Source of the DNA: a virus
Lineage: Duplodnaviria > Heunggongvirae > Uroviricota > Caudoviricetes
Virus record (IMG/VR): IMGVR_UViG_2526164634_000026
Strand: one strand, 5' to 3'
DNA length: 30,934 nucleotides
Below the pieces are notes generated by a model, which worked only from the letters and a program-made list of their open reading frames with translations, was not told the DNA's origin and ran no database searches. Shown here one piece after another: positions 29,282 through 29,933 of the stretch. Made by a program: the position numbers and the translations under genes. Numbering within the stretch: the stretch's first letter is position 1; the number at the start of each line of letters is the position of its first letter.

Positions 29282-29676
29282 TGGCCGTTTCCGGCCTGCA
29301 TGGCATGATTTGCGCTTTTGGACGGGAGATTCAGTGTGCTGATTGGCTATGTAAGGGTATCAACAAATGACCAGAATACAGACCTGCAACGAAACGCTCT
29401 TGTTTGTGCAGGATGTGAACAGATATTTGAAGATAAATTAAGCGGGACAAAGACAGACCGACCGGGATTAAAACGCGCTTTAAAGCGCCTTCAAAAAGGT
29501 GACACGCTGGTTGTCTGGAAACTGGATCGCCTCGGGCGAAGCATGAAACATCTGACTTCTCTCGTCGGGGAACTACGGGAGCGAGGGATTAATTTTCGCA
29601 GTCTGACCGACAGCATAGATACATCTTCTCCAATGGGGCGTTTTTTCTTCCACGTGATGGGGGCCCTGGCTGAATG
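29256..29676. repeat. Right arm of about 420-bp inverted repeat
   Basis: Reverse complement of 25772-26190 with a few substitutions and small indels. Confidence 0.75.
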
Positions 29677-29933
29677 GAACGTGAATTAATGTTGAACGTA
29701 CACTGGCCGGACTGGCGGCAGCGCGCGCACGGGGGGCGCACAGGCGGACGTCGACCGAGCTGACAAAGAACAGCATGAGCAAATAGCGAGGCTGATTAAA
29801 AACGGTCAATGACAGGAAACAACTGGCGATCATTTACGACATCGGCATATCGACGATTTATCGTTATCACCCTGTAGGCGATATACAGGCTGAAGAAACA
29901 ACCAGGCAGACTCAGGAAAATGAAAACCGCTAA
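29336..29933 (+). pseudogene. Second serine invertase gene, frameshifted; 5' about 340 bp nearly identical to gin, 3' part diverged (Hin/Pin-like)
   Basis: Track ORF 29318..29689 matches Gin residues 1-113 then ends (…EWNVN*); downstream frames still encode invertase C-terminal HTH-like sequence (…RKQLAIIYDIGISTIYRYHP…) across at least two frameshifts. Confidence 0.7.

Follow-up and report, generated by a model that had tools for sequence, protein, structure and literature searches.

Two DNA-invertase genes lie near the right-hand end of a 30,934-nt stretch of Caudoviricetes DNA (hereafter the window, meaning the whole stretch that was analysed), one of them an intact gin and the other broken by frameshifts, and the question raised by this locus is what the broken copy represents. 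An earlier interpretation made from the letters alone (hereafter the sequence-only reading) saw in it a chimeric pseudogene, homogenised with gin at its 5' end and continuing into a different, decayed invertase at its 3' end. Here, we compare the right-hand copy with gin by pairwise alignment and with its relatives in a five-way alignment, and weigh how far the frameshifts, the mosaic relation to gin and the surroundings of the gene reflect biology or the draft assembly in which they were deposited.

Prophages and their arrangement in the window

The window represents the last 31 kb of a draft contig of 267,897 nt (AIHD01000023.1, assembly GCA_000250275.2, Escherichia coli DEC12D), and the contig ends 1 nt past the window, 1.1 kb downstream of the second invertase. 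Positions 1-24509 hold a lambdoid prophage that is located next to ybhC and broken inside its terminase small-subunit gene. This part is 99.96-100% identical to two complete sister genomes, E. coli O111:H2 12A and FDAARGOS_1059, where the prophage continues through the terminase genes. The lambdoid prophage also carries cargo at 15745-16704 and 19338-21188, for which the annotations of relatives name an LpxR-family lipid A deacylase and a SASA-family carbohydrate esterase with DUF1737.

The terminase gene is broken at 24507..24510 by the junction with the right end of a Mu-like prophage, and from 24507 to 28068 the window differs from the Mu-like prophage of FDAARGOS_1059 by one mismatch (24549) in 3,562 nt. 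Here gin, an intact gene of 197 aa on the minus strand (25518..26111), is followed by com (25247-25435) and mom (24589-25326). The layout in both sister genomes is tail-fibre trunk, gix, cassette, gix, gin, com and mom. Across DEC12D, 12A and FDAARGOS_1059 the element occupies three different insertion sites, and 12A has at least two copies of it; it is therefore mobile and repetitive in this lineage, where it appears to be actively transposing. An SDR oxidoreductase gene is its insertion site in the sister genomes, and 12A has a copy next to ppsA as well.

Starting at the left gix site, the window runs collinear with the P2-like phage P88 from ETEC K88 (PMC6456863) and with P88-like prophages in many E. 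coli. These have the order tail-fibre trunk, gix, cassette, gix and invertase, followed on the opposite strand by gpU and the tape-measure gene. In the window, the P88-like gpU is found at 29960-30448 and the 3' end of the tape-measure gene from 30461 to the window end (30934), both on the minus strand, and the same downstream synteny is seen in phage P88 and about 620 complete E. coli genomes. A hairpin with a 12-bp stem (AAAACCGCTAAT...ATTAGCGGTTTT, 29923-29952) overlaps the stop codon of the invertase between the convergent invertase and gpU genes; it is kept in the P88-type relatives and is likely a bidirectional terminator.

The two invertase genes flank an invertible tail-fibre cassette (26192..29255) with open reading frames at 26237-27217 and 27219-27746 on the plus strand and at 27775-28308 and 28311-29054 on the minus strand. 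The cassette is bounded by an inverted pair of gix-type crossover sites of 26 bp and identical sequence, the right one at 29256..29281 on the plus strand (TTCCTGTAAACCGAGGTTTTAGATAA) and the left one at 26166..26191 on the minus strand. A 26-bp query modelled on Mu gix had these two matches in the window and none in 100 shuffles. Both sites are part of a 433-nt inverted repeat, whose left arm (25774-26206) is 94% complementary to a right arm (29241..29673) that includes the crossover site, the promoter region and invertase codons 1-113.

Compared with its Mu-like relative, the window has no mismatches over 24550-28068 and 3.6% beyond; within the cassette, Mu-only sites extend to 27856 and non-Mu, P88-like sites begin at 28069. 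The best matches of 28050-29335 are in P2/P88-like prophages. With its left part identical to the Mu-like relative and its right part P88-like, the cassette is thus a two-parent hybrid, and the parent switch together with the P2/P88-like matches identifies the second invertase as the own gene of the P88-like prophage. The switch (27857-28068) falls inside the tail-fibre-assembly gene at 27775-28308 and could be due either to homologous recombination or to an assembler switching between copies.

The juxtaposition of gin, cassette and second invertase may itself be a repeat-induced mis-join, which we propose with less confidence than the errors discussed below for the frameshifts. The arrangement of gin, cassette and P88-type invertase occurs in none of 5,426 complete genomes, although 1,911 of these have a Mu-like region and 621 the P88-type gene. 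Moreover, the two parts meet within a repeat, at a distance of 2.9-3.1 kb from the draft contig's end, and a Mu-like element that is multi-copy in a sister strain invites mis-joins. The competing explanation, to which we give appreciable weight while leaning away from it, is that the arrangement is real: a Mu-like prophage in the lambdoid terminase gene would have recombined, inside the shared cassette, with a P88-like prophage elsewhere and inverted the intervening chromosome segment, resulting in two outward-facing invertases and no tail-fibre trunk. In its favour are the clean two-parent structure with a single switch, the evident mobility of the Mu-like element and the existence, in another assembly, of a complementary hybrid that combines a P88-like tail module and a cassette with Mu-like gin-com-mom. 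In that assembly (GCA_009798215.1, WTRL01000003.1, positions 1-6823), P88-like baseplate J, tail protein I and the tail-fibre trunk precede the cassette, and the Mu-like gin-com-mom is followed by a host EAL-domain gene. From position 5126 its sequence matches the Mu-like relative without differences and the preceding part is diverged, so that the switch is confined to about 75 nt including gix, as expected for invertase-mediated recombination between two prophages. Since this assembly joins Mu-like and P88-like sequence through the cassette, such joins either occur or recur as artefacts, and the unusual DEC12D architecture is not impossible in nature. A search for a second DEC12D contig or a near-identical P88-like parent, by way of the 247-aa and gpU proteins, found both proteins to be private to this contig. 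The question of the architecture leaves the verdict on the invertase itself unchanged.

The second invertase and its six frameshifts

The DNA-invertase gene of the P88-like (P2-related) prophage extends over 29336..29933 on the plus strand and, as written, is broken by six 1-nt indels. It begins with a GTG at 29336, reaches a stop at 29687-29689 after 117 codons and continues in other frames to 29933; the start at 29318 chosen by the sequence-only reading is only a TTG upstream in the same open reading frame. Over the whole gene, the copy is 98-99% identical at the nucleotide level to the intact invertases of phage P88 and WP_000905059.1, matching the gene of the latter at 331 of 337 nt in the 5' part and 254 of 258 aligned nt in the 3' part. 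The first open reading frame (29336-29689, 117 aa) encodes the resolvase catalytic domain only, its single Pfam match being Resolvase (PF00239, E = 6e-41), whereas the protein repaired in silico matches both Resolvase and HTH_7 (PF02796, E = 1.4e-12); the C-terminal HTH is absent from the same frame as written and appears only when the six indels are removed. The repaired protein aligns to the Mu Gin structures 4M6F and 3UJ3 over residues 1-185, and the Ser9 within the VRVSTNDQ motif of the right-hand copy aligns with Ser9 of Gin (S9A in 3UJ3). Judging from nucleotide identity that extends through the 3' part and from the gpU and tape-measure synteny, the gene is of the P88-type lineage and most likely encodes the serine DNA invertase native to a P88-like prophage (Xuanwuvirus, P2-related) in E. 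coli DEC12D. It belongs, in other words, to an already known and abundant lineage.

All six indels are private changes in homopolymer length, located at 29672..29809 on the plus strand and clustered within 137 nt (29672-29808). The 1-bp deletion described by the sequence-only reading is real (GCTGA-ATGG) and shortens AAA to AA at 29673-29674, leading to the stop at 29687-29689. The sequence quoted for gin at this place is, however, not that of the local gin, which reads GCTGAGATGG, but that of the intact P88-type relatives (GCTGAAATGG). The further frameshifts mentioned are also present, numbering five between 29690 and 29809: a T deleted from TT (29690), G5 extended to G6 (29731-29736), an A deleted from AA (29758), A4 shortened to A3 (29765-29767) and A doubled to AA (29808-29809). 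Half of the six thus fall in runs of only 1-2 nt. Under uniform placement, the chance of finding six indels within 137 nt of the 30.9-kb window is about 5e-11, and the cluster starts exactly at the outer edge of the 433-nt inverted repeat that the gene shares with gin. Four close relatives lack all six indels, none of 5,426 complete E. coli genomes carries the six-indel allele (best match 97.0%), and the truncated 117-aa product is found on a single contig in an index of 153 billion genes.

The rest of the window provides the background against which this cluster can be read. Private substitutions are spread evenly, 13 in 1.7 kb, with only one (29788) within the indel cluster, and five of the six in gpU are synonymous. 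No gaps separate the 4.8 kb of Mu-like sequence from its relative, and the 24.5 kb of lambdoid sequence have three private indels, all in intergenic long runs. The latter are undercalls at 16726 (T7 against T8), 16983 (G6 against G7) and 21590 (T4 against T5), with the two complete and mutually agreeing sister genomes as reference, and may reflect true variation in run length or, alternatively, a background of homopolymer errors in the draft. Generally poor quality was therefore rejected as a sufficient cause: with clean coding sequence elsewhere, the general error rate cannot explain the cluster, and the P88-like base substitutions, being mostly synonymous, look like real divergence, so that the region is not uniformly poor. 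To read the indels as errors, one must suppose a cause confined to this place, for instance low coverage or a unitig junction. Two more specific sources were also discarded. Templated mutagenesis from the inverted gin copy, by quasi-palindrome or template switch, would bring the sequence nearer to gin, and none of the six indels does so. Flow-space averaging, with homopolymers shortened by gin reads recruited to the wrong copy, would account for three or four of the six indels, but not for G5 to G6 or AA to A.

On this evidence, we consider that the gene is probably an intact and ordinary P88-type invertase, with frameshifts that are consensus errors of the draft assembly and a mosaic structure that is lineage-wide. 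Removing the six indels restores an open frame of 199 codons that ends at the stop codon of the family. Between this frame and WP_000905059.1 there are 8 synonymous and 2 non-synonymous changes, and I74T alone separates the repaired product from an intact protein present on about 999 contigs; the exact repaired protein (T74/D169) is absent from a collection of 15 billion proteins, in which I74/D169 and I74/G169 are abundant. The open frame and the 8:2 ratio leave no trace of neutral decay beyond the indels themselves. Work on mutation accumulation in E. coli puts indels at about 10% of neutral mutations, and on that assumption the chance of at least six indels among eight private events is about 2e-5. 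Chemistry of the 454 type errs almost solely in homopolymer length; a point against the error reading is that natural slippage favours homopolymers too. The E. coli drafts of 2012 from the same centre, an indirect pointer to the platform of DEC12D, were produced from 454 Titanium paired ends with the Celera assembler (PMC3491183). The edge of a repeat is where an overlap assembler would place a unitig or read-recruitment boundary, and consensus errors would then arise where unique sequence leaves the repeat, the underlying gene being the intact invertase of 199 codons; a natural process has no reason to begin its indels there.

The alternative, that the gene is a genuine and very recent pseudogene, is in our judgement unlikely, although it deserves to be weighed. 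The deposited sequence is, after all, frameshifted, decay is common among prophage genes, and indels are absent from the coding sequence elsewhere in the window. The identical gix pair and an intact gin 3.2 kb away mean that loss of the second enzyme could be neutral, perhaps being tolerated as intact Gin acts on the same sites. Against decay, however, the 3' part holds six indels but at most two private substitutions, the excess of synonymous changes is the pattern of purifying selection, and three of the indels are in the short runs where slippage is rare. The allele is likewise found nowhere else, neither among the complete genomes nor in the gene index, and the cluster begins exactly at the repeat edge, close to the contig end. 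The frame is thus disrupted as written, yet there is no sign of relaxed selection and the allele is confined to one contig. With six private homopolymer changes on one draft contig, the term pseudogene is probably wrong. Sequencing errors that leave an intact second invertase, an outcome named by the sequence-only reading itself, are the best-supported explanation.

A further reading is the combination in which both the architecture and the frameshifts are real, such that a Mu-like element transposed into the lambdoid terminase gene, recombined through its cassette with a P88-like prophage while inverting the chromosome in between, and the invertase then acquired a burst of six frameshifts at the edge of its homology to gin. 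We regard this as improbable; if true, it would suggest that recombination at a homology boundary is coupled to a local mutational process producing only indels.

A homopolymer frameshift is also seen in the gin gene of the same Mu-like prophage in another assembly (GCA_900449905.1, UASF01000007.1, about position 5521), which is split into open reading frames of 117 and 90 aa by one T6 to T5 change in the run GGGGCGTTTTTTCTT; this may be a sequencing error.

The boundary between gin-like and P88-type sequence

The near-identity to gin over about 113 codons, catalytic serine included, and the sharp boundary behind it are real features of the right-hand copy, as the sequence-only reading had noticed. 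Over codons 1-113, it matches the left gin (25518-26111, minus strand) at 317 of 337 nt (94.1%), and upstream of the gene at 61 of 66 nt, whereas past 29672 the identity drops to 128 of 258 nt, or about 50%. On the 5' side of the boundary, about 94% of synonymous sites are conserved with gin, while on the 3' side conservation is seen at the protein level only. The boundary lies at about nt 340-390 of the gene: per 30 nt, the identity between P88-type genes and gin is 25-30 up to nt 330, and then 24, 21, 13 and lower. The intact P88-type genes (phage P88 and WP_000905059.1) show their drop against gin at the same nt 340-390.

The origin of this boundary can be read from the sites that distinguish Mu-type from P88-type genes between 29256 and 29672. 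At all 18 such diagnostic sites, the right-hand copy has the P88-type base, and the base of the local gin is found at none of the 18. A local gene-conversion tract should carry the allele of its donor, here the local gin, and no such tract is present. Homogenisation has consequently not taken place locally, and the boundary was already present in the ancestor of the P88-like lineage. The proposed overwriting of the 5' part of a distinct invertase by the neighbouring gin in this genome was suggested by the 433-nt inverted repeat with its 94% identity and abrupt edge, but is almost certainly incorrect given the diagnostic sites, the 20 differences from the local gin over 337 nt as compared with 3-6 from P88-type genes, the presence of the boundary in the intact gene of phage P88 and in hundreds of genomes without this neighbourhood, and the six indels, none of which shifts the sequence toward gin.

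The 3' part does derive from a different invertase lineage: its amino-acid identity is 94-96% with P88-type invertases, as against 57-70% with Gin, Cin, Pin and others. The resemblance of this part to Hin/Pin-family invertases, which had been noted before, accordingly holds at the level of the family, but its true relatives are of the P88 type. From these sequence comparisons, it appears that the P88-type lineage and Mu-like phages share an exchanged module made up of the tail-fibre cassette with its gix sites plus the first two-thirds of the invertase gene, and that any recombination behind the mosaic predates this genome and yielded functional genes.

The mosaic relation to gin thus represents an old, lineage-wide exchange of modules between Mu-like and P2-like phages, and the locus has cautionary value, as a striking "chimeric pseudogene" can be an ordinary invertase that lies on the edge of a repeat, close to where a draft contig ends. 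Shared tail-fibre cassettes are places where unrelated prophages can be joined, and since such joins may arise in the cell or in the assembler, calls of pseudogenes and rearrangements in these places need read-level support.

Expected function and comparison with known invertases

By analogy with Gin and Hin, the P88-type invertase would flip the tail-fibre cassette between the inverted 26-bp gix sites and thereby switch the host range, with the inversion alternating the C-termini of the tail fibres together with their chaperones. The enzyme would consist of the N-terminal resolvase domain with Ser9 and the C-terminal HTH, and its action would be assisted by an enhancer that is bound by Fis and resides within the 5' coding region of the invertase itself. 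In gin, three Fis sites are found inside the coding region (PMC3378877), and nt 1-330 of the P88-type gene are identical to gin at 25 or more positions in every 30-nt bin. Enzyme activity and enhancer function of the P88-type gene are thus extrapolated from its relatives. The remark of the sequence-only reading that a retained enhancer could still affect Gin-mediated inversion is plausible but of little consequence, since any such enhancer would simply belong to the P88-type gene itself. Were the second invertase truly broken, the nearby Gin could act on the same gix sites.

The closest known counterparts are the invertase of phage P88 (AIZ95151.1) and its orthologues, including WP_000905059.1 (annotated as "recombinase family protein"), with which the window copy shares the position after the cassette, convergent with gpU and the tape-measure gene, as well as the gix sites, the stop codon and the mosaic relation to gin. 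It differs from the P88 type by the six 1-nt indels and the private substitution I74T, and the far side of its cassette is occupied by a Mu-like gin instead of a P2-type tail-fibre trunk. Gin of phage Mu (3UJ3, 4M6F) and of SfMu-like prophages differs over the first 113 codons by two residues only (K39R and I74T) and has Ser9 and the resolvase fold in common with the window copy, whose crossover site is identical to the one beside the local gin. In contrast, the 3' 260 nt are about 50% identical between Mu gin and the window copy, the amino-acid identity of the DNA-binding domain is about 64%, and the context of the window copy consists of P2-like tail genes where that of gin consists of com and mom. 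More distantly, Cin (P1/P7), Pin (e14 and related elements) and Hin have the same Resolvase and HTH_7 architecture as the window copy after repair and the same role, being Fis-dependent serine invertases that flip a segment between inverted 26-bp sites, but the C-terminal 85 residues of the window copy are only 57-70% identical to those of Cin, Pin or Hin.
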